Positions 8,382 through 29,369 of a stretch of 64,000 nucleotides of DNA are shown here, piece after piece (position 1 is the stretch's first letter; each line of letters starts with the position of its first letter). Origin of the DNA: Promethearchaeota archaeon (GTDB lineage: Archaea > Asgardarchaeota > Thorarchaeia > Thorarchaeales > Thorarchaeaceae). The notes beneath the pieces are model-generated. The model did no database searches and was not told where the DNA came from. It saw only the letters and a list, made by a program, of their open reading frames with translations. The translations under genes were made by a program, and so were the position numbers. The stretch lies in assembly GCA_014730275.1 (NCBI GenBank), contig WJIL01000006.1, forward strand, positions 36,191-100,190, in the 5' to 3' direction.

Positions 8382-9899
8382 TCATTCCTCCAAAGGATTC
8401 GGCAGGTCAGTTACAGTTCCCCACGGTATAGCTAGGCGACCCGGATGTAGAATCAGATTCGGATCCAGGACCTTACGGAACTTCACCAGCATCTTGTAGT
8501 AGTCCTTCGCTTTGCTGAAGGTCTCTGGGGCATGGACAAACGGATCAGGTCTATAATTGATCCAGCCCTGTTTCAGAAAGCTCTTCGTCGTCTCAAGATT
8601 GAACTGCCGTATTTTGTCATAGATGCCTTCCTCGGTGCTATCAAAGCAGAGAATTGGCATGACGATTGCTTGTCTGGCATGATCTATGGAGGCCACCCAC
8701 ATTGTTGGTGGGAAACCATATTCTTCCATTTTCGCACAATACTCCTCCATCATTCGGGGAGCTTCCAACCATGGGACATACCACGTGATGAACAAGAAGC
8801 CAGCCTGATAGAGACCATATGGTACTGCTATCAGATTTGGTTTTTTCAACCGAGACGCAATCTGTTTCGGATGCAAGTCCTGCTTTGGGCATTTAGTGTT
8901 CTCTCTGAGCTCGTAATCCTTGTAGATTTCATCAATCCGTTCCAAGGTGAAGTTGAGCTCCTCTTCAGAATGAGCCCAGATTTCGGTATTCATCCAGTAT
9001 TCGTCAATGCCAATCTTGTCATAAAACTTGTAATCCTGTGGAATGTTCCCCTTTGGCCACCTTGTCATCACAAGCGGCCAGTTACCACCTTGTACCATAA
9101 CGGTATTGTCGGAGATACCCATCTCATGTTTAGCTATCTCCCATACTGGCTCTACAATGTGATCCCAGCTATCACCACCATAAGCTACAATTGTCTTATG
9201 ATGAGGATGTGGAACAATCTTTACAGCAGCCTTGGTAACGATTCCCATTGAGCCCTGTGAGCCAAGGAACAGACCATCAGGGTTTGGTCCAATCCCCCAC
9301 CTGTAGTAGGCTTTCGCTCCATCAAGAGCCCAAGAGCCTGTTCTGAAAATTTGACCATCAGGTAGGACGACCTCGAGGCCCATGATCATATCGGCCTGTG
9401 GACCATATCTAGCAGTAACGAGAGAGAAACCTCGTTCAATGGCGTCACCCAAAATGGTTGCACCCGGTGGTGCTCCATCTGGAATGGGTGGTGCCCATTC
9501 GGGCCATTTCTTTTTGAATATCCTCCATGCATCACCACATTTGACACCAGGTTCAACCACCATGACGCGGTTTTCCGGGTCAACTTCCAGGCGATTCATG
9601 CGAGCCATATCCATCAAGATCCCTCCAGGTTCAATTGCTGGAAGGGCGAACCCACCACTCAAACCACCTGCTGCAGGTGTTACTGGACTCAGGTTATCAT
9701 TGGCCACTTGTAGAATACCAGCAACTTCTTCGACGTTACCTGGTCGGACAATTACTTCGGGAAGTTCTGCTTCCAAACCCATGATTCCCTTTGCCATGTA
9801 ACTGTAGCGCAACGGTTCGCTATCTGTGACATATTCCTCACCGCATATGGATTCCAACTTCTTAACTTCGGCATCAGTTATTTTGTTGTATTCAGTCAT
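8382..9899 (-). CDS. FAD-linked oxidase (GlcD / D-lactate dehydrogenase-like, FAD-binding PCMH domain)
   Basis: N-terminal FAD_binding_4-like region 'VIVRPGNVEEVAGILQVANDN...PAAGGLSGG'; size and adjacency to a GlcF-like Fe-S subunit. Confidence 0.75.
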   Translation of the reverse strand: MTEYNKITDAEVKKLESICGEEYVTDSEPLRYSYMAKGIMGLEAELPEVIVRPGNVEEVAGILQVANDNLSPVTPAAGGLSGGFALPAIEPGGILMDMARMNRLEVDPENRVMVVEPGVKCGDAWRIFKKKWPEWAPPIPDGAPPGATILGDAIERGFSLVTARYGPQADMIMGLEVVLPDGQIFRTGSWALDGAKAYYRWGIGPNPDGLFLGSQGSMGIVTKAAVKIVPHPHHKTIVAYGGDSWDHIVEPVWEIAKHEMGISDNTVMVQGGNWPLVMTRWPKGNIPQDYKFYDKIGIDEYWMNTEIWAHSEEELNFTLERIDEIYKDYELRENTKCPKQDLHPKQIASRLKKPNLIAVPYGLYQAGFLFITWYVPWLEAPRMMEEYCAKMEEYGFPPTMWVASIDHARQAIVMPILCFDSTEEGIYDKIRQFNLETTKSFLKQGWINYRPDPFVHAPETFSKAKDYYKMLVKFRKVLDPNLILHPGRLAIPWGTVTDLPNPLEE

Positions 9900-10133
9900 C
9901 TATTCAAAGTCTCCATCGCCACGCATTTTGTCCATAGTGTAATGGAACAAAGAAGGCGCGCAATAAATAGGCATCGCATTTTGGTTACTTGTCGCGCTGA
10001 AATCATACATGGTAATTGAAGAAATAGAACAAATCCGTGTTGGTACGACCATTGTAGACAGCAACAAGCTGTAGAATCCTCAACAATGAAGCTTAATTCC
10101 CGCCCTTACACCTTCTTATGTAGGTGAGTTTGT

Positions 10134-17913: not shown

Positions 17914-19629
17914 TCAGTATATCTTAGGCGAGTCCCATTCCCCAAATACCTCTCTCCATACATCGCAGATTTCGCCTACTGATGCGTATGCACGGACAGC
18001 CTTGACAACCCAAGGCATGACATTTTCATCACCTTCGGATGCTTTCCTCAGCCCTTCCAAAGCCTCCTGAACCGCCTCTTCGTCTCGCTCTTCCCGGACT
18101 CGATTCAGTCGTTCAATCTGCCGTTTTTCAACTTCAGGATCAATCTTCAGCACAGGAATCTCGGGTTCTTTCTCAACCTTGAATTTGTTGACGCCAATAA
18201 TGGTTCGCTCGTTGTTTTCGATTTCCTTCTGATATCGATATGAGGATTTGGCGATTTCTTTCTGGAAGAAACCCTTCTTTATAGCGGGAACTACACCCCC
18301 CATAGCATCTATCTTATCGAAGTACTCATAGGCCTCCTCTTCCAACTCATCCGTTAGTGATTCAATGTAGTACGAACCAGCAAGAGGATCAATGGTGTTT
18401 GCAGCGCCACTCTCGTGTGCTAGTACCTGTTGGGTACGCAGAGCAACACGAACAGCGTCTTCTGAAGGAAGCGCCAAAGCTTCATCCATGCTATTGGTGT
18501 GCAGCGACTGAGTGCCACCAAGAACTGCAGCAAGTGCCTGATATGCAGTTCTAACGATGTTGACCATCGGTTGTTGTGCTGTGAGCGAACAGCCAGCTGT
18601 CTGAGTATGGAACCGCATCCAAAGAGAACGATTCTTCTCCGCACCAAAACGCTCTTTCATCTCGCGTGCCCAAATCCTCCTTGCAGCACGGTACTTGGCA
18701 ACCTCCTCGAATATATCATTGTGAGCATTGAAGAAGAATGACAAGCGCGGTGCAAAATCATCAACGTCCAGCCCTCTCTCGACACACCAATCCACGTACT
18801 CCAATCCATTTCTGAGCGTGAATGCAAGTTCCTGTGCTGCCGTTGACCCTGCTTCGCGAATGTGATACCCACTGATTGAGACCGTGTTCCATCGTGGAAT
18901 GTGTTCGGTGCAGTACTCAATGATATCGACGATAATTCGTAATGATGGCTCAGGTGCATAAATCTCTGAACGCTGAGCTTGAAATTCCTTAAGCAGGTCA
19001 TTCTGAATAGTTCCACCGATTTGGTCAGGAGGGACCCCTTGCTTCTCAGCGACGACCATATACATCGCAAGTAAAATGGAGGCGGGCGCATTGATGGTCA
19101 TGCTTGTGGTGACCTCATCAAGAGGAATTCCGTCGAATAATATTTCCATGTCCTTCAATGTGTCAACTGCTACACCGAGTTTGCCAACTTCACCGTGTGA
19201 CATAGGATGGTCGGAGTCCCGACCATAGATTGTTGGCAAATGGAAAGCAACACTCAGACCGGTTTGTCCATGCTTGAGCAAATACTTGAACCGCTGATTC
19301 GTTTCTTCAGCAGTACCCATGCCTGCAAACTGACGCATAGTCCAGAGTCTGCCCCGGTACATCGTAGGCTGAACTCCCCGTGTGAATGGATACTCGCTTG
19401 GAAATCCCAGGTCCTCGAGGTAGTCAAGATCTTGCGTATCCAGAGGCGTGTAGAGTCTCTTAACCGGCTTGCTAGAAGTGGTTACGAACTCGTCTTTGAT
19501 TTCAGGGTACTTATTCAAATGTGGTTCGAGGGTTTCTTTCTCCCACGTCTTTTTTGCCTTGGCTATGCGATTCGACTCTGGTTTGCTGCCTGCATATTCC
19601 TTCCTCGATTCTGCTTTTTCGGCACCCAT
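17914..19629 (-). CDS. mcmA: Methylmalonyl-CoA mutase large (catalytic, N-terminal TIM-barrel) subunit
   Basis: '[52 protein letters not shown]' and '[12 protein letters not shown]' are diagnostic MCM alpha motifs; no B12-binding domain is fused (archaeal split type). Confidence 0.85.
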
Positions 19630-19707
19630 GTCTAGTTCTCCTGAGTACGATATGGAAGCTGTCCAAAGAGAGGATATTAACTTATTCGATTTTGCCCAAT
19701 GCAGAAC

Positions 19708-20271
19708 TTAGAATTCGAACCCCTTTCTTGCCTTAACGCCTTCTTCCTCGAAGTAATGCTTTACCTCTTTCATCTCAGTAACTAAATCAGCTGCCTCAAT
19801 CACTTCTTCACGGGCATACCTTCCCGTCATGATCAGTTCCATATCATCGGGTTTAGTGCGTATAAGTTCCAGCTGATCCTCCAGACTGAATAAGTCCCAT
19901 TCCACGGCCACATTAATCTCATCAAGAATCAACACATCACAGGTATGGTCAGCAATCGCCTCTTGAGCCATTCGTAGCCCTTTCTGTGCAAGTTCGATAT
20001 CAACAGGGTCAGGATTCTCTTTGTCAACAAATGTTTCTCTGCCAACCGGGACGATAGCGAAATGGGGAATTTTCTGAACCGAAGCAAACTCTCCATAATT
20101 GATATCAACCTTGTCACCCCGCATGGCGACCTTTGCCTTCATGAAGGAAATCATCATCACACCAAGACCATGGCCTGCTGCACGCATACCAGCACCAAGA
20201 GCAGCTGTGGTTTTCCCTTTACCAGTTCCAGTATAAACTTGCACGAGACCTGGCCGAGGTTCATCACTCAT
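19708..20271 (-). CDS. cobA: ATP:cob(I)alamin adenosyltransferase (CobA/CobO/BtuR family)
   Basis: P-loop 'YTGTGKGKTTAALG' and the overall CobA signature; adjacent to the MCM gene. Confidence 0.8.
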   Translation of the reverse strand: MSDEPRPGLVQVYTGTGKGKTTAALGAGMRAAGHGLGVMMISFMKAKVAMRGDKVDINYGEFASVQKIPHFAIVPVGRETFVDKENPDPVDIELAQKGLRMAQEAIADHTCDVLILDEINVAVEWDLFSLEDQLELIRTKPDDMELIMTGRYAREEVIEAADLVTEMKEVKHYFEEEGVKARKGFEF

Positions 20272-20282
20272 TGGAGCCTCAC

Positions 20283-20915
20283 CTATTCATGCATTGTGTT
20301 GACAAGCTCAGCTACACGCTGGCCCAGTTTGATACTGCCCTGAATTGCAAGTTCATCATCCTTTGCGGAGCGCCATTTGCCATCGTCTGTTTGGAGACTC
20401 CCAGCGCCAAAGAAGCCATCTTTCACAGGATTGTCAACTGCTCCCACAACGATCATACCGTGACCGAGAGCAAACCGATTTAGATAGTCAACGATATGTT
20501 CCTGTCCGCCATATCGCAAGCCTGCGTATGATATTGCGCCAAAGATTTTGTCCTTCAGTTCGTTCCCATTCATCTTCATGGGTCTTGATCTGTCGATCAA
20601 ATCCTTCAAGACACCAGGAACAGCAGTGAAGTAAGAAGGAGCGGAAACAATGATTCCATCAGCCTTTCTTAGCCATTCTTCAATCTCTGGCATGTCGTCC
20701 TTTTCACTCTCGGGACAAGGTTTGCGACGAACACATGCATCACAGCCAGTGCAATGACGAATTTCATAGTCGCTCATCTTCAAGAGTACTGTGTTTCCTT
20801 CTTTGTTAGAACTACTAGATAATTCAGAAGAGGCGGCATCAAGTGCCTTCCTCAGGAGAAACTCAGTGTGCGACTTCTCAGTCTTAGGAGATCCACAAAT
20901 ACCAACTACTAGCAT
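20283..20915 (-). CDS. Iron-sulfur flavoprotein / NADPH-dependent FMN reductase-like
   Basis: Flavodoxin-like N-terminus 'MLVVGICGSPK', compact Cys cluster 'CTGCDACVRRKPC', 'GIIVSAPSYF' FMN-reductase motif. Confidence 0.65.
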   Translation of the reverse strand: MLVVGICGSPKTEKSHTEFLLRKALDAASSELSSSSNKEGNTVLLKMSDYEIRHCTGCDACVRRKPCPESEKDDMPEIEEWLRKADGIIVSAPSYFTAVPGVLKDLIDRSRPMKMNGNELKDKIFGAISYAGLRYGGQEHIVDYLNRFALGHGMIVVGAVDNPVKDGFFGAGSLQTDDGKWRSAKDDELAIQGSIKLGQRVAELVNTMHE

Positions 20916-21759: not shown

Positions 21760-22119
21760 TTGTTTGTAGACATACCCTTTTTATGGCTACGAGAATACCC
21801 AAAACTGGGTGTTGATGTGCCACGACGGAAAGACCGCCCTCGTAGAACGCGGTATGACATATATGCGGAACTCATTCGTGTCATCTATATCTACGGCCAC
21901 TGCCCCCTTACTCGAGCGGCACGTTCATGCAATATGCCAGTTGATCGTGCAAAGGATAGCATCAACATGCTCTGTGATAGAGGTCTGCTAGAAGAAGAGG
22001 ACGATGACGGGCAGATTCTATACACAGTAACAGTGCGTGGCCACCAGTATTTGGAGCTTTACAAGCGTATGGCAAAGCTAGTGGGTATGCCAATGCCCGA
22101 TCCAATTATGGGAATGTAG
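21760..22119 (+). CDS. Small winged-helix DNA-binding protein
   Basis: 'DIYAELIRVIYIYGHCPLTRAARSCNMPVDRAKDSINMLCDRGLLEEEDDDGQILYTVTVRG' fits an H1-H2-H3-wing pattern; start (TTG 21760 or internal GTG) uncertain. Confidence 0.4.
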   Translation: MFVDIPFLWLREYPKLGVDVPRRKDRPRRTRYDIYAELIRVIYIYGHCPLTRAARSCNMPVDRAKDSINMLCDRGLLEEEDDDGQILYTVTVRGHQYLELYKRMAKLVGMPMPDPIMGM

Positions 22120-22247: not shown

Positions 22248-23006
22248 ATGGGAGTACCACAATCTCAAATTGTGGACTACAATACGAAACTCCAAGTTAC
22301 AGCAACAGTAACTACAGGAGGTCCACAGTCTCAAATCAGCCTATTCGGTGTGCTCTTCATTGCCATGATTTTGGCGTTAGTAATTATCTATGCTCTCAAA
22401 AGATATCTGGGCAACTGGAGAGAACGCACGATTGAGGAACCATTTGAGTCTACGGATGAACAATCAGTCTGGTCGTTTCTCCGGTCGAAGTTACCTAGAA
22501 CGAGAGTTCTCGCTTTAATCATCATTATTGTCATCGGAATTCCAAGTGTATTCTTTATTGGTCGAATGCCGGTCCATCGAACCAACATCACTCACACAGA
22601 TCCTGAAGGAGATGTATCGGATCCTAACATCGACATTGTCCAATTGCGCTCATACCGAACTGGTAACGACATCGCACTCGAAATAACAGTTGCAGGGGAA
22701 ATCAGAAACGTAACGGATTCTTCACCGTATCCTGATCCATACGATTACAGAATAACGATAATCACAAGGAGACCGAATGAAGAAGGTACCCCGGCTTACA
22801 GAGTCAGCTACACGAATGGAACCCTCGGGTTGCAGTACGATACCAGAGCCAACGTAGATAACAATACGCTAACCATTTTCCTTCCTTTGTATGAAATAGA
22901 TTCACGATACTACATAATTGATATCAAAGGCAAAGCGAGGACTTACACCGAGACAGATACCACAGAGGCAGATTCGGACCGTCCTGTTGAAAGGCTACTT
23001 TTCTAG
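22248..23006 (+). CDS. Single-pass membrane-anchored protein with extracytoplasmic domain
   Basis: Strong SD 'aggaggt' 11 nt upstream of ATG; TM 'LFGVLFIAMILALVIIYAL'; internal repeat GVPQSQI/GGPQSQI at the N-terminus. Confidence 0.45.
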   Translation: MGVPQSQIVDYNTKLQVTATVTTGGPQSQISLFGVLFIAMILALVIIYALKRYLGNWRERTIEEPFESTDEQSVWSFLRSKLPRTRVLALIIIIVIGIPSVFFIGRMPVHRTNITHTDPEGDVSDPNIDIVQLRSYRTGNDIALEITVAGEIRNVTDSSPYPDPYDYRITIITRRPNEEGTPAYRVSYTNGTLGLQYDTRANVDNNTLTIFLPLYEIDSRYYIIDIKGKARTYTETDTTEADSDRPVERLLF

Positions 23007-23106
23007 GGATGGTCACAATTTGTGACTACTGATTGTGACTTCGCTTTATATGTAGAGGATAGTGGATTATACATAGAAAATATGCATCAAAGGAGCAACG
23101 AAGAAC

Positions 23107-24339
23107 ATGAAATTCAAAGGTGAACAGGAACTCGTACTGGGTCTGGTTCGAGAAGACCTCGAGCTAAAAGACTGTAGATACGTAGTTCCTGAAGACGGGT
23201 CCCAAATCACTGTAGAGGGAGACATCAGAATCAAAGGCGAGACGTTCTTCAGAGGGAGTGTAAAAGCACAGAATCTGGAAGTAACTTCAAGCGACAAAGT
23301 GACAATCGAAGGTGATTTGGAAGTTGAAGGATCAGCCACCGCAAAGAAAGGCAGTATAGAAGTCAGGGGTTCCGCGAAAGGACAGATTTTCGAAGCCGGT
23401 GGTTCACTCACAATAGGCGAGAATCTCATTTGTGGAGGTGCCAAAGGTGGCGGCTCAATCAAAGTGGGCGGTAACGCAAAGGCACAGAGAATGAGTGCAG
23501 GTGGATCTCTGAGTATAAGCGGAGATGCTGTTGTTGACAGATTACGTGGAGGAGGCTCAATCAAAGTGGGCGGCCGAATCGAAACAGAAGAGCTTCATGT
23601 CGGTGGCAGCGGTAAATGCAATCATGGAAAAATCGGAAGAGTGAACATAGGCGGCAGTTTCAAGGCCGAAGGTTCTGTTGAAATCGACGAGATTGATGTT
23701 GGCGGCTCTGCCAAAGTCGGACCCAACTCCAAAGTAGCATCCGTTGATGTCGGAGGCTCATTCAAGGCAGCTGACAATTTCGAGTTCGGGGACATTGATG
23801 TTGGTGGTAGCGTAAAGATCAGTGGCAATGGCAAGGGCGGAGAAATTGATGTTGGCGGAACTGTGAAAGTATCTGGATCGCTTGAGCTGGAAAATGTAGA
23901 AGTGGGCGGGAAGCTCTCTGTAGATGACAACCTCAAAGCAAGTCGAAAGATCAAAGTCGGGGGAACGGTCTCTGTTGGCGGTAGAATCGACACATACCGT
24001 ATTCTCGCAGGCGGAAGAATTGAAGCCAAGTACATCTTCGCTGAAGACGGACTCAGAATCGGGCGCAAGGGTGAAGTCCGAGGTTTTGTAGAATCCAAGG
24101 AAATTTGGATTCGCGAACGTGCCAGGACAGATTCGCTCTACGGAGAAGATATTCGCGTCGAGGAAAGAGCAAGAGTAGCGAACATCTATGGAAAGGATGT
24201 TTACATTGAACGAGACGCAATAGTCGAGGGAAAGGTCCTCTACACAGACAGCCTCGAAAAAGAGAGCGATGTAACAATCAGAAAAGACACCAGAAAGGTG
24301 GATGAGCTTCCCCCACCAGAAGAATTGGCAAATAGTTAG
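23107..24339 (+). CDS. Bactofilin-like beta-helical repeat protein (extended)
   Basis: >15 repeats with 17-18-aa period of the form '(D/E)VGGSxKxxxxxxxxx(I/V)' (e.g. 'IDVGGSAKVGPNSKVASV','DVGGSFKAADNFEFGDI','DVGGSVKISGNGKGGEI'), matching the bactofilin (DUF583) triangular beta-helix winding length. 'aggag' SD before ATG. Confidence 0.5.
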   Translation: MKFKGEQELVLGLVREDLELKDCRYVVPEDGSQITVEGDIRIKGETFFRGSVKAQNLEVTSSDKVTIEGDLEVEGSATAKKGSIEVRGSAKGQIFEAGGSLTIGENLICGGAKGGGSIKVGGNAKAQRMSAGGSLSISGDAVVDRLRGGGSIKVGGRIETEELHVGGSGKCNHGKIGRVNIGGSFKAEGSVEIDEIDVGGSAKVGPNSKVASVDVGGSFKAADNFEFGDIDVGGSVKISGNGKGGEIDVGGTVKVSGSLELENVEVGGKLSVDDNLKASRKIKVGGTVSVGGRIDTYRILAGGRIEAKYIFAEDGLRIGRKGEVRGFVESKEIWIRERARTDSLYGEDIRVEERARVANIYGKDVYIERDAIVEGKVLYTDSLEKESDVTIRKDTRKVDELPPPEELANS

Positions 24340-26188: not shown

Positions 26189-27160
26189 ATGATGGACGTC
26201 ACAAAGGAAACCTTGGAAGATCTTTATACGCAGACTCTCAAAGTCAGGCTTTTCGAAGAAAAAGTATGGGAAGTATTCGGGCGCAATCTGATACCGGGCA
26301 CGCTTCATCTCTATCTTGGAGAAGAGGCAGTTGCTGCAGGTGTAAGTACAGCTCTGAGAGAGTCGGATTGGATTCAGAGTACCCATAGAGGGCATGGGCA
26401 CGTTGTCGCGAAAGGAGCGGATATGAAACGAGCTTTTGCCGAGTTGCTTGGAAAGAAGACGGGCTCATGCAAGGGGAAAGGTGGATCCATGCATATTACG
26501 GAGTTTGAGGCAGGTATTCTCGGCGCTACAGGCGTCGTGGCCTCAGGCCTACCAATAGCTGTTGGAGCAGCTCTTTCGGCACAGTTGCGAGGAACCGATG
26601 AAGTGGTAGCTTGTTTCTTTGGTGACGGAGCCTCAAACAACGGAACTTTCTGTGAGTCCCTCAATATGTCTGCGATATGGAAATTGCCTGTAATCTGGGT
26701 AGTTGAGAATAACTTTTACGCTATGGGGACACCAATCAAGCAGATGTGCCCAAGTCAGAGCATAGCAAGAAGAGGCGAAGCGTATTGTATCCCAAGTCAA
26801 GTTGTTGATGGCAATAATGCATTGAAGGTCTACAAAGCCGCAGCAGAAGCAGTAGAAAGAGCACGAAACGGCGAAGGTCCATCACTGATTGAGTGCCAGA
26901 CATACAGAAAGAAAGGCCATTCTCGCTTTGATCCCGCTGATTATCGACCAGAGGAAGAGGAAGAAGAATGGTTGAGCAGAGATCCTGTTGAAATAATCAC
27001 GAATCTTGCCATTGAGCAAAAAGCGTTGTCCAAGAAGAAAGCTGAGAACATCCGAAAACAGCTGCAAGAGCAAGTGGATGAAGCGGCTGAATTTGCAATC
27101 AATTCTGAACATCCTGAACCAGAAGAAGCTCTGGAAGATGTGTTTGCGGAGGTGGCCTAA
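26189..27160 (+). CDS. 2-oxoacid (pyruvate/acetoin) dehydrogenase E1 component alpha subunit, TPP-dependent
   Basis: 'LYLGEEAVAAGV', TPP-binding 'GDGASNNGTFCESLNMSAIWKLPVIWVVENNFYAMGT', phosphorylation-loop-like 'YRKKGHS'. Confidence 0.85.
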   Translation: MMDVTKETLEDLYTQTLKVRLFEEKVWEVFGRNLIPGTLHLYLGEEAVAAGVSTALRESDWIQSTHRGHGHVVAKGADMKRAFAELLGKKTGSCKGKGGSMHITEFEAGILGATGVVASGLPIAVGAALSAQLRGTDEVVACFFGDGASNNGTFCESLNMSAIWKLPVIWVVENNFYAMGTPIKQMCPSQSIARRGEAYCIPSQVVDGNNALKVYKAAAEAVERARNGEGPSLIECQTYRKKGHSRFDPADYRPEEEEEEWLSRDPVEIITNLAIEQKALSKKKAENIRKQLQEQVDEAAEFAINSEHPEPEEALEDVFAEVA

Positions 27161-28135
27161 TTGACGGAAATGACGTATCGAGAAGCCCTAAGAGAAGGTC
27201 TTAGAGAAGAATTACAGCGTGATGAACGCGTTTTCATGATGGGCGAAGATATTGGCAAAAACTGGGGTGGTGCATTCAAAGTAACCAAAGGTTTTGTCGA
27301 GGAATTTGGCGAAGAACGTATCAGAGACACACCAATTTCAGAGAACACAATTGCAGGAGCGGGTGTGGGTGCAGCAATAACGGGAATGCGCCCAGTTGCT
27401 GAGATAATGTTTGGTGATCTCATTACGCTGGCCATGGATCAAATCTGTAACCAGGCAGCAAAGATGCGATATATGTTCGGCGGACAAACATCTGTACCCC
27501 TTGTCTTGCGGACCGTATTTGGAGGGGGCAAAAATATTGCTTCCCACCACTCGCAGAGCCTACAAGCATGGTTCATGCATACACCAGGGCTCAAAGTAGC
27601 AGTACCTGCTTTCGCTTCGGATGTCAAAGGATTGATCAAGACAGCCATCCGTGATCCAGATCCAGTTATGTTTTTCGAGCATAAATTGGTCTATGACAAG
27701 AAGGAAGATGTACCAGATGACGAATACCTCATCCCCTTTGGGGAAGCGAAAATCCGTCGCGCAGGTGAGGATGTTACTGTCTGGGCCACGTTCAGAATGC
27801 TACATCAAGCCATAGAGGTAGCAGATGAGCTCGCCAAGGAAGGAATCAGTGTCGAAGTTATCGATCCAAGAACTCTAGTGCCGCTCGATAAGAAGACCCT
27901 CATTGATTCGGTTGTCAAAACGGGGAGGCTTGTTCTTGTTACTGAGGAAACCAAGACAGGAGCGACCACAGCAGAGATATCAGCATTGGTACAAGAGGAA
28001 GCTTTTGACTGGTTGGACGCCCCAATCAAACGGGTGAATGCACCCGATACACCAATACCTTTCAGTCCCACTTTAGAGGACTATTTCATACCTGACAAAA
28101 AGCAGATTTCCAACACAATCAAGAGTATCGTATAG
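27161..28135 (+). CDS. 2-oxoacid dehydrogenase E1 component beta subunit
   Basis: 'MTYREALREGLREEL...VFMMGEDIG' transketolase-pyrimidine-binding N-terminus and C-terminal transketolase domain; starts immediately after the E1alpha stop. Confidence 0.85.
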   Translation: MTEMTYREALREGLREELQRDERVFMMGEDIGKNWGGAFKVTKGFVEEFGEERIRDTPISENTIAGAGVGAAITGMRPVAEIMFGDLITLAMDQICNQAAKMRYMFGGQTSVPLVLRTVFGGGKNIASHHSQSLQAWFMHTPGLKVAVPAFASDVKGLIKTAIRDPDPVMFFEHKLVYDKKEDVPDDEYLIPFGEAKIRRAGEDVTVWATFRMLHQAIEVADELAKEGISVEVIDPRTLVPLDKKTLIDSVVKTGRLVLVTEETKTGATTAEISALVQEEAFDWLDAPIKRVNAPDTPIPFSPTLEDYFIPDKKQISNTIKSIV

Positions 28136-28151
28136 AATCTGAGGGAGCCCA

Positions 28152-29369
28152 ATGGTCGAGATTATGATAATGCAACGAATGAGCGTCGCAATGGAATATG
28201 GCGTGATTCTGGAGTGGCTAAAAGAAGAGGGTGAACACGTCGAAAAGGGCGAACCCGTTGTTGAAATCTTTGGTGAGAAAAATGAGTTCGAATTAGAATC
28301 GCCATACGAGGGTATACTTCTCAAACAGCTCTGTGAAGTGGATGATGAGATTCCAATCAGTGAACCTATAGCAATCATAGGCGAAGAGGACGAGGAAGTA
28401 CCTGATATCACACCCAAAAAGCTTGGAGAGATGGAAGAAGACCAGACTCCTGCTGCCGAAGACAAACGAACAGCTGTTGAGGTAGTCAAAGAAGCTGAAT
28501 CTACTGGGCAAACCGAAATCTCTAGGCTAAGAGGAGGGAGAGTCAAAGCATCTCCACGAGCAAGAAAGAAAGCCGAGGAGCTTGGTGTCAATATCAAAAT
28601 GGTTCGTGGTACAGGGCCGAGCGGTCGGATCGTAGAGGATGACGTGATAGAAGCATCAAAGGTACAGGTGGATTCTAGAGAAATAAAAGAAATAAAACCA
28701 ATGAGTCCATTGAGGCGGACAATAGCGCGAAGGATGACAGAAAGCTCAGAACGACCTCACATCACAATGATCACCGAGATTAACATGACAGAAGTTGTCA
28801 AACTCAGAAAAGAAATCAATACAAAAACTGAGAAAACTCATGCTTTGAGGATTTCGTTCAATGACATAATTGTAAAGGCTGTAGCAGACACCCTGGAGAA
28901 ATTCCCCCATTTCAATGCAACTCTTGAGGGTAACAACATCAAGATGTATGATGACATAAACATAGGAATAGCTATGGCAACAGATGAAGGTCTGATAGTT
29001 CCAACGGTGTTCTCAGCCAATAAAAAATCGATTACAGAAATAGCACAAGAAAGCCAAGGACTGAAAGAAAGAGCACAAGAAGGTGAATTGACTTCTGAAG
29101 AGCTTTCAGGCAGCACATTTACCGTCTCAAATCTAGGACCATTCCAAGTGGATCTTTTCATTCCACTCATTAACCCACCAGAAGCTGCGATTCTTGCTCT
29201 CGGGCAAATCAAAGAGAAGCCGGTGGCTGTTGACGGTATGATTGGTATTCGCCACATGATGATGGCTTCATGCGCAGTGGATCACAGAATCCTTGATGGT
29301 GCTCCTGCAGGAAAGTTCCTCCAAGTACTGAAGGAGTCTCTTGAGAATCCCTATTTCATGAAAATATAG
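28152..29369 (+). CDS. Dihydrolipoamide acyltransferase E2 (single lipoyl domain + E1/E3-binding + catalytic domain)
   Basis: Lipoyl domain 'VVEIFGEKNEFELESPYEGIL'; PSBD 'ASPRARKKAEELGVNIKMVRGTGPSGRIVEDDV'; catalytic 'DHRILDGAPAGKFL' (DHRxxDG). Confidence 0.8.
   Translation: MVEIMIMQRMSVAMEYGVILEWLKEEGEHVEKGEPVVEIFGEKNEFELESPYEGILLKQLCEVDDEIPISEPIAIIGEEDEEVPDITPKKLGEMEEDQTPAAEDKRTAVEVVKEAESTGQTEISRLRGGRVKASPRARKKAEELGVNIKMVRGTGPSGRIVEDDVIEASKVQVDSREIKEIKPMSPLRRTIARRMTESSERPHITMITEINMTEVVKLRKEINTKTEKTHALRISFNDIIVKAVADTLEKFPHFNATLEGNNIKMYDDINIGIAMATDEGLIVPTVFSANKKSITEIAQESQGLKERAQEGELTSEELSGSTFTVSNLGPFQVDLFIPLINPPEAAILALGQIKEKPVAVDGMIGIRHMMMASCAVDHRILDGAPAGKFLQVLKESLENPYFMKI

Follow-up and report, generated by a model that had tools for sequence, protein, structure and literature searches.

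A gene in the DNA analyzed here, a 64,000-nucleotide stretch of contig WJIL01000006.1 from a Promethearchaeota archaeon (assembly GCA_014730275.1; hereafter the window), encodes a cytoplasmic, rod-like, right-handed three-sided beta-solenoid that is a much elongated member of the bactofilin superfamily. This fold class is clear. The reading of the locus that we favor, with a probability of about 0.6, is that the gene is regulated by a winged-helix (wH) protein and that the rod self-associates into a scaffold or filament. A preliminary description of this DNA had already proposed a bactofilin-like beta-helix; what is added here is the pairing with a wH gene across phyla and a conserved operator. 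The gene and the parts of its product are as follows.

23107 to 24339, plus strand: elongated bactofilin-family beta-solenoid gene (410 amino acids, ATG start, 43 kDa, pI 5.3, about 23 windings of 17 residues).
23107 to 23982, plus strand: N-terminal extension, residues 1-292, about 17 windings (from the repeat layout and sub-threshold PF04519 segments).
23983 to 24291, plus strand: last six windings, residues 293-395, with 'xIRERARxxxLYGxD' rungs (from PF04519 and the profile alignment with BacA and TtBac).
24292 to 24336, plus strand: C-terminal tail K-V-x-x-L-P-x-P and then a short helix, residues 396-410 (from conservation and AlphaFold2).

The open reading frame (ORF) lies exactly where the preliminary description had placed it, and that description's count of more than 15 consecutive repeats of 17-18 residues is correct and even conservative. 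The protein is rich in Gly (16%), Val (10%) and Glu (10%), and its autocorrelation (BLOSUM62, against 200 shuffles) peaks at lags of 17 (z = 9.0), 34 (z = 10.6) and 51 (z = 5.7) residues, with sub-peaks at lags 6 and 11 that fit a three-sided winding. When the protein is laid out in rows of 17 residues, residues 4-395 fall in one register with a single +1 shift, giving about 23 windings in agreement with the strand pattern of the AlphaFold2 model. This is about 3.8 times the six-winding bactofilin domain, as opposed to the two- to threefold excess first estimated. The VGG(S/T)xK turn on which the repeats were said to be centered does exist, but the strict form VGG[ST]xK occurs only five times (residues 165, 198, 215, 232, and 249), and a looser [VIA]GG corner accounts for 14 occurrences from residue 97 to 303. 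Likewise, the long antisense ORFs are real (165, 158, and 196 amino acids, all overlapping the gene), but their explanation by DNA periodicity did not hold: Tandem Repeats Finder detected no tandem repeat in the gene, and the DNA autocorrelation is modest (z = 4 at lag 51 and z = 6 at lag 102, against a codon-shuffled control). The repeat is thus a feature of the protein, and codon composition is the better explanation of the antisense ORFs.

Membership in the bactofilin family is indicated by profiles, by winding length and by the predicted structure. The whole protein scores 42.1 bits against the Pfam Bactofilin profile PF04519 (gathering cut-off 27.9), and residues 276-410 alone score 32.7 bits, also above the cut-off. 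Elsewhere in the protein the profile matches below threshold (22 bits for residues 1-122 and 21 bits for residues 208-309) or, in the segment covering residues 106-207, not at all. Nearly all homologues have precomputed PF04519 matches, and 20 of 29 C-terminal segments taken from homologues match the profile independently (best E 4e-9). When a profile of the C-terminal 118 residues was compared with 177,635 Protein Data Bank (PDB) sequences, the two solved bactofilins came out on top, namely BacA of Caulobacter crescentus (2n3d, residues 57-139, E 0.007) and TtBac of Thermus thermophilus (6ria, E 0.17). The whole-family profile finds BacA at E 0.008, with profile positions 321-401 aligned to BacA 57-136. 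Only profiles reach these two proteins; a phmmer search of the PDB sequences with the single 410-residue protein gave no match. Bactofilins have six windings of about 17 residues (10.1101/617639), and the 17-residue winding observed here is of that same length, which further supports membership. On these sequence grounds, the last six windings (residues 293-395) can be taken as a bona fide bactofilin domain.

The AlphaFold2 model, built with a 75-sequence alignment, is of high confidence, with a mean predicted local distance difference test score (pLDDT) of 97.7, a predicted template modeling score of 0.90, and 408 of 410 residues at a pLDDT of at least 90. It shows a beta-helix that is right-handed and three-faced, with about 17 residues per winding, as in bactofilins. 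Beta-strands run from residue 2 to 397, and the sole helix (residues 404-408) lies in the C-terminal tail, with none inside the rod. A beta-solenoid rises by 0.48 nm per rung, so that about 23 windings would give a rod of about 11 nm. It is for this number of windings and for the lack of disordered tails that we class the protein as a variant and not as a typical bactofilin.

Several other beta-helical folds were considered and rejected, among them the left-handed beta-helix, pentapeptide-repeat and adhesin folds that the preliminary description had named as alternatives. Handedness, rung length, and the absence of secretion signals or of Pfam matches speak against these three. The left-handed hexapeptide helix has an 18-residue rung built of three sixes, which does not fit the protein. 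The passenger adhesins of two-partner secretion (TPS) and autotransporter systems are marked by a signal peptide, by a TPS domain or a beta-barrel at the C-terminus, and by a rung that is wider; none of these is found here. FapA/DUF342 (PF03961) resembles the protein weakly over residues 225-310, and JGI labels some homologues DUF342; the match, at 21.8 bits, stays below the cut-off of 31 and takes in little of the profile's 272 positions. A match to DUF5649 in the Pfam scan was likewise sub-threshold.

The two ends and the middle of the rod differ in composition and in conservation. A Gly-rich core of the form 'xxI-D-V-G-G-S-x-K' spans residues of about 89-292, and the rung consensus of the extension is x-x-x-x-x-I-x-V-G-G-S-x-K-x-x-G-x, corrected by hand from column counts since rows with GGG distort the majority string. 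Conservation peaks in windings 174-258, where it is highest, and again in 311-378. Near the N-terminal end, D17, C23, and P28 are invariant among Asgard homologues, and in the tail K397 and L401 are each kept in 68 of 75 family members, P402 in 65 and P404 in 45; the tail helix is modeled at a mean block pLDDT of 93. No signal peptide or transmembrane segment was found in the protein. Differences in length between homologues are not random, as 37 of 46 internal insertions or deletions of at least five residues are 17, 18, 34, or 35 residues long. Whole-winding changes map to residues 1-292, and Hermod-type proteins lack exactly the 17 residues corresponding to positions 123-139. From these alignments, the family evidently evolves in length by whole windings, and it is in this way that the N-terminal extension has grown and shrunk.

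Comparison with described bactofilins places the protein outside the known architectures. Like canonical bactofilins (PF04519/DUF583; BacA 2N3D and TtBac 6RIA), it passes the family profile, forms a right-handed three-sided beta-helix of 17-residue windings, and has six final windings that align with those of BacA and TtBac. No nucleotide-binding motif was noticed by eye, no tool having been used to scan for one. F130 of BacA is a polymerization residue (PMC12448750), and 67 of 75 family members have a hydrophobic residue (F, L, I, or V) at the aligned position, which is I391 in the rod; this counts in favor of family membership and gives indirect support to polymerization. Unlike canonical bactofilins of six windings (about 100 residues), the rod has about 23, it lacks disordered N- and C-terminal tails and the MFSKKKK peptide, a Gly-rich VGGSxK rung makes up most of its length, a KVxxLPxP tail follows the last winding, and its distribution is archaeal (Thor-, Hermod-, and Bathy-type). 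Four bactofilin architectures have been described: the canonical six windings, HalA with two sets of six, HalB with a transmembrane segment and five windings, and the BacEF-like cluster with 13 windings, which includes a Methanobacterium protein (PMC11459167). With its uninterrupted helix of about 23 windings, the rod fits none of the four. In the halofilin HalA (Haloferax volcanii HVO_1610), two six-winding subdomains are arranged head to head, and the alpha-helical hairpin that connects them serves as the membrane-targeting sequence (PMC11459167). Both HalA and the rod are archaeal cytoplasmic members of the superfamily that exceed one canonical domain, and some Asgard members of the HalA group have been reported (PMC11459167). 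Unlike HalA, the rod is one uninterrupted helix with no internal alpha-helix. A closer parallel in gene arrangement is the yhbD(bacR)-bacE-bacF operon of Bacillus subtilis, in which a helix-turn-helix (HTH) protein encoded upstream activates the operon, and long bactofilins bind the HTH protein and take it off the DNA (PMC13649987). As with BacE and BacF, the rod is longer than a canonical bactofilin and is encoded directly downstream of a small HTH gene. The rod differs in having 23 windings instead of 13, in a comparison based on their published description; in addition, the archaeal regulator is an HTH_45 winged helix and not a DUF4004 protein, and the rod gene has its own promoter and operator.

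These promoter and operator elements lie directly upstream of the gene.

23012 to 23026: operator box 1, a perfect 7+1+7 inverted repeat, GTCACAATTTGTGAC, with half-sites GTCACAA and TTGTGAC around a central T (read from the sequence).
23033 to 23039, plus strand: operator box 2, a third half-site TTGTGAC, 13 nucleotides (nt) downstream of the right half of box 1.
23042 to 23052, plus strand: promoter core, CGC bases resembling the transcription factor B (TFB) recognition element (BRE) and the TATA box TTTATATG (from the archaeal promoter consensus).
23090 to 23095, plus strand: Shine-Dalgarno-like AAGGAG, 11 nt before the ATG; GGTGA or GGAG stands at the same place in homologous upstream regions.

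The assignment of CGC-TTTATATG as a putative BRE and TATA box rests on the known archaeal promoter consensus; box 2 lies 2 nt upstream of the BRE-like bases and 5 nt upstream of the TATA box. A scan for sigma-70 promoters and terminators gave nothing above the shuffled control, and the sigma-70 consensus is not applicable to archaea. Box 1 is the only match in the 64-kb window when up to one mismatch is allowed. When the 400 nt upstream of the bactofilin gene were searched in 83 loci with the pattern GT[CA]ACA-N3-[TC]GTG[AC], a match was found in 68, in two phyla, at a median position of -101 nt and in 54 of these 68 between -100 and -119. From its information content, the pattern is expected by chance about 0.03 times per 15-kb locus, and it is almost absent from the rest of about 1 Mb of loci. 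Conservation also extends to columns outside the search pattern: across 57 unique promoters of Asgard archaea, box 2 keeps its GTG in a fixed column (98-100% conserved), and five TATA columns (TT-TA) are 86-100% conserved at a fixed spacing from box 1. In Bathyarchaeia, either the palindrome is kept or a half-site abuts the TATA box. Extra copies of the operator stand before a TrmO-like gene in Hermod-type loci (L004, 5271-5285; L066, 6259-6273) and before an 80-residue ORF in a Bathy-type locus (L083, 1334-1347). Each has a TATA-like box about 30 nt downstream, and the genes that follow adjoin the bactofilin gene. The presence of such copies before adjacent genes is the behavior of a transcription-factor site, and they hint at what may be a small regulon.

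The gene for the presumed regulator belongs to the conserved neighborhood, which was examined in 86 loci found with an alignment of 23 Asgard sequences, the ORFs being called and clustered by BLASTP.

21760 to 22119, plus strand: HTH_45 winged-helix protein, 119 amino acids (Pfam HTH_45, 33.9 bits against a cut-off of 25.5).

On HTH_45, the scores of orthologues from Hermod- and Bathy-type loci range from 32 to 57 bits, and the NCBIfam Sso10a subfamily model scores the 119-residue protein at 28.5, below its cut-off of 60. On the same strand as the bactofilin gene and one or two genes upstream of it, the wH gene is present in 51 of 57 Thor-type loci (median gap 104 nt), 4 of 13 Hermod-type loci, and 5 of 7 Bathy-type loci; within 7 kb upstream it is found in 10 of the 13 Hermod-type loci. 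The proteins are orthologous across lineages and share the motif RT[RK]YDIYA..C.LTR..N[ML]PVDRAK..YLE.[YF]K[RQ]M. The wH gene is the only partner conserved across lineages. The Thor- and Hermod-type wH proteins share a conserved C-terminal tail that is hydrophobic and rich in Pro, VG[IM]P[IM]P[DE]P(I[IM]GM or VTPF), and that Bathy orthologues lack, and the rod likewise ends in a Pro-rich stretch (LPPPE). In some Bathyarchaeia (L005 3659-4984, plus strand; L084; L085), the orthologous wH is fused to a KaiC/RecA-like ATPase (PF06745; 327-444 amino acids), and a second gene for a KaiC-like ATPase (252 amino acids) stands between the fusion and the long bactofilin gene.

The adjacency of the wH gene over two phyla together with the orthology of its products, and the frequency of the operator compared to its chance expectation and near-absence elsewhere, both count in favor of a regulatory unit. 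The wH protein is the candidate binder of the operator; the geometry of the palindrome, with 6-bp half-sites whose centers are 9 bp apart, fits a wH dimer, and the position of the operator directly upstream of the BRE suits an activator or repressor that acts on the recruitment of TFB and the TATA-binding protein. In the mechanism that we favor, the HTH_45 protein would bind the operator as a dimer with an extra contact next to the BRE and would thereby set the level of the rod protein. Bactofilins polymerize independently of nucleotides into non-polar filaments through head-to-head and tail-to-tail contacts. By analogy, copies of the rod would join end to end, with no need for nucleotides, and so build filaments or a scaffold that may serve to position other proteins. 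The rod may also bind its own regulator, as BacE and BacF do with BacR in B. subtilis.

A number of observations weigh against this reading. In the window, no such palindrome stands upstream of the wH gene itself. For the majority of Hermod-type loci, this gene is several kb distant or is not found within 7 kb, so the factor that binds the operator need not be the wH protein. By E-value (0.007 and 0.17), the link of the C-terminal windings to solved bactofilins is marginal. Foldseek returned no match at E<=0.001 for the model against the PDB, a search in which repetitive solenoids align poorly, and hhalign of the family alignment against an 80-residue single-sequence fragment of BacA gave a probability of 20% for an off-register match of 21 residues; neither result is informative. 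The AlphaFold2 model has no disordered tails, as no segment falls below a pLDDT of 50 and the beta-helix begins at residue 2. Bactofilins have an N-terminal membrane-targeting peptide with the consensus MFSKKKK (PMC12448750); judged by sequence, the rod has none, its N-terminus being MKFKGEQELV (MxExLxFKNE in homologues) and modeled as the first beta-strand, although it may still bind membranes in some other way. Finally, the conserved ends (D17/C23/P28 and KVxxLPxP) could be caps that block end-to-end growth. This last point leads to a serious rival, which we consider possible although on balance improbable, namely a capped beta-helical rod that does not polymerize but acts as a spacer or ruler of fixed length, or as a monomeric or dimeric docking platform, with its ends and Pro-rich tail binding partners. 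The absence of flexible tails and of the targeting peptide, the invariant N-terminal residues, and the well-ordered tail and helix conserved in about 90% of members would all fit such a rod. So would the length of the protein, narrowly kept over phyla at about 400-440 amino acids as expected if length matters, and the concentration of conservation on the mid-rod windings, which suggests a lateral binding surface. Against this, the C-terminal six windings retain the bactofilin profile and the hydrophobic residue aligned with BacA F130, and the bactofilins described in the cited literature (PMC11459167, 10.1101/617639, PMC13649987, PMC12448750) all polymerize.

Two further explanations concern the neighborhood and the location of the protein, and both are less probable. 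The preliminary description had suggested a GTPase-linked cytoskeletal module within a roadblock-wH-membrane-bactofilin neighborhood, by comparison with Myxococcus. In such a module, a longin/roadblock protein (a platform of the GTPase-activating or guanine nucleotide exchange type), a membrane protein and the bactofilin would form a small-GTPase polarity system comparable to MglA/MglB and BacNOP of Myxococcus. The roadblock-like neighbor is supported, as a 247-residue protein is modeled with an N-terminal longin domain and a C-terminal roadblock domain (bb-a-bbb-a and a-bb-a-bbb folds), at moderate confidence (pLDDT 73), and its gene is adjacent in 55 of 57 Thor-type loci. The linkage, however, is confined to the wholly syntenic Thor-type block (methylmalonyl-CoA mutase, CobA, FMN reductase, the 247-residue protein, wH, bactofilin, methyltransferase); it is found in none of the Bathy-type loci and in only 2 of 13 Hermod-type loci (L053 and L063), which have the Thor-type gene order. 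The membrane protein is restricted to close relatives of the window, and a motif scan for G1, G3, and G4 in ORFs of at least 90 amino acids flagged no small-GTPase-like ORF in the 64 kb. A neighborhood of four genes is therefore not conserved, only the wH gene being kept across lineages, and the proposed module is unlikely. More unlikely still, and close to negligible, is the possibility that the beta-helix is not cytoskeletal but lies outside the cell or on its surface, as do those of adhesin, ice-binding, or Ca2+-binding type. In its favor, the family profile also matches a phage tail fiber (9cuy, E 1e-9) and giant repeat proteins of 2.3-4.5 thousand residues, and some homologues have weak matches to pAdhesive_15 or DUF5649. 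The tail-fiber match covers generic Gly-rich rungs only and is not taken as functional homology. TPS and autotransporter helices have rungs of about 19-25 residues and MpAFP of about 19, longer than the 17 residues observed here. The protein lacks an anchoring domain, a signal peptide, and transmembrane segments, its N-terminal MKFKGEQELV folds straight into the helix, and Pfam assigns Bactofilin and no adhesin family.

The membrane protein just mentioned lies between the wH gene and the operator.

22248 to 23006, plus strand: membrane protein, 252 amino acids, for which two transmembrane segments are predicted and which is a singleton in the set of 86 loci.

Its stop codon (23004-23006) is 6 nt before the palindrome. 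Since it is a singleton and has only about nine near-identical members in the databases, the gene is taken to be a recent, lineage-specific insertion. Two related loci, L002 and L003, have a non-homologous gene for 249 amino acids in the same slot, and homology between the L002 gene and the membrane protein was rejected (E 36). Farther out, the window has genes for methylmalonyl-CoA mutase, cob(I)alamin adenosyltransferase, and FMN reductase on the minus strand (17914-20915), and for an S-adenosylmethionine-dependent methyltransferase and a 2-oxoacid dehydrogenase operon (E1alpha, E1beta, and E2) on the plus strand (26189-29369). In the related Thor locus L002, a gelsolin-like gene for 88 amino acids (9848-10114) follows the bactofilin gene at a distance of about 3 kb. 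In all 15 Hermod-type loci, the next gene downstream on the same strand encodes a protein of about 340 residues with an HFHHDH motif and weak matches to the metallo-beta-lactamase fold (L004 7336-8358, plus strand). It is followed by PIG-L and glycosyltransferase genes, and may be a lineage-specific partner or a case of mere synteny.

A word-indexed search for members of the family found 135 relatives, nearly all of 390-450 amino acids, from metagenome-assembled genomes (MAGs) labeled Thorarchaeota, Promethearchaeota, Odinarchaeota, Bathyarchaeota, and Nitrososphaerales, and those with names are automatically annotated as 'polymer-forming cytoskeletal protein' or 'CcmA (bactofilin family)'. 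A HMMER search over 1.84 billion cluster representatives returned 191 clusters at E<=1e-30; the number rose to 1,566 at E<=1e-10 and to 5,212 at E<=1e-3. At least 104 GTDB species representatives, labeled Thor-/Hermodarchaeota, 'Promethearchaeota', or Bathyarchaeia, encode a relative, the closest being 85% identical (Thorarchaeota BLK6-1.bin.124). A single bactofilin copy was seen in the 64-kb window, and its exact sequence is missing from a collection of 15 billion proteins in which both upstream neighbors occur at 100% identity (NCBI MBD3157273/4, GF309_00665/670); the annotation of the deposited MAG thus seems to have a different call for this gene, or none. The label of that MAG is 'Candidatus Lokiarchaeota archaeon' (GF309_ locus tags), although its close relatives are all Thorarchaeota. 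One Hermod-type locus (L067) has tandem bactofilin-family ORFs of 292 and then 397 amino acids downstream of the wH gene, from either a partial duplication or a frameshifted assembly. In a group of giant proteins among the weaker matches, P0215 (4425 residues), P0234 (4515 residues), P0258, P0259 (2360 residues), P0263, and P0264, the family profile matches in 9-21 stretches, and P0259 scores 123.7 bits on PF04519 over six stretches. By these profile matches, bactofilin-type rungs appear to be used in multi-kiloresidue proteins as well. No paper describing this archaeal family of about 400 residues was found in the library searched, where five papers contain both 'bactofilin' and 'Asgard'; of these, the halofilin paper (PMC11459167) uses 'Asgard' for HalA homologues only. 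A paper on AbpX (bioRxiv 2026.01.04.697558) touches on bactofilins in passing and does not bear on the family.

To us, the most interesting aspect is the combination of the wH pairing, the conserved operator, and the evolution of length by whole windings. A bolder extension of the favored reading, which is doubtful but worth stating, is that the rods of about 11 nm form an unrecognized filament or lattice system of Thor-/Hermodarchaeota and Bathyarchaeia, with the wH protein as a partner-switching adaptor that would shuttle between the operator or chromosome and the polymer. It would then couple assembly to expression or to the positioning of DNA, as an analogue of BacR-BacEF or BacNOP-PadC-ParB. 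If the rod does not polymerize, what is left of the finding is a structural oddity with good annotation. Conserved over two archaeal phyla, the wH gene and the operator of three half-sites make an unusually clean and testable candidate regulator-operator pair, and a protein of about four times the canonical length that changes by whole windings is naturally suited to show what influence the length of the subunit has on the assembly of bactofilins. Studies of the Asgard cytoskeleton, pursued for what they may reveal of eukaryotic origins, have so far focused on actin, tubulin, the endosomal sorting complexes (ESCRT), and small GTPases. The elongated rod adds a candidate that is concrete and can be cloned, and that may prove to be another scaffold, independent of nucleotides, in the archaea that encode it.

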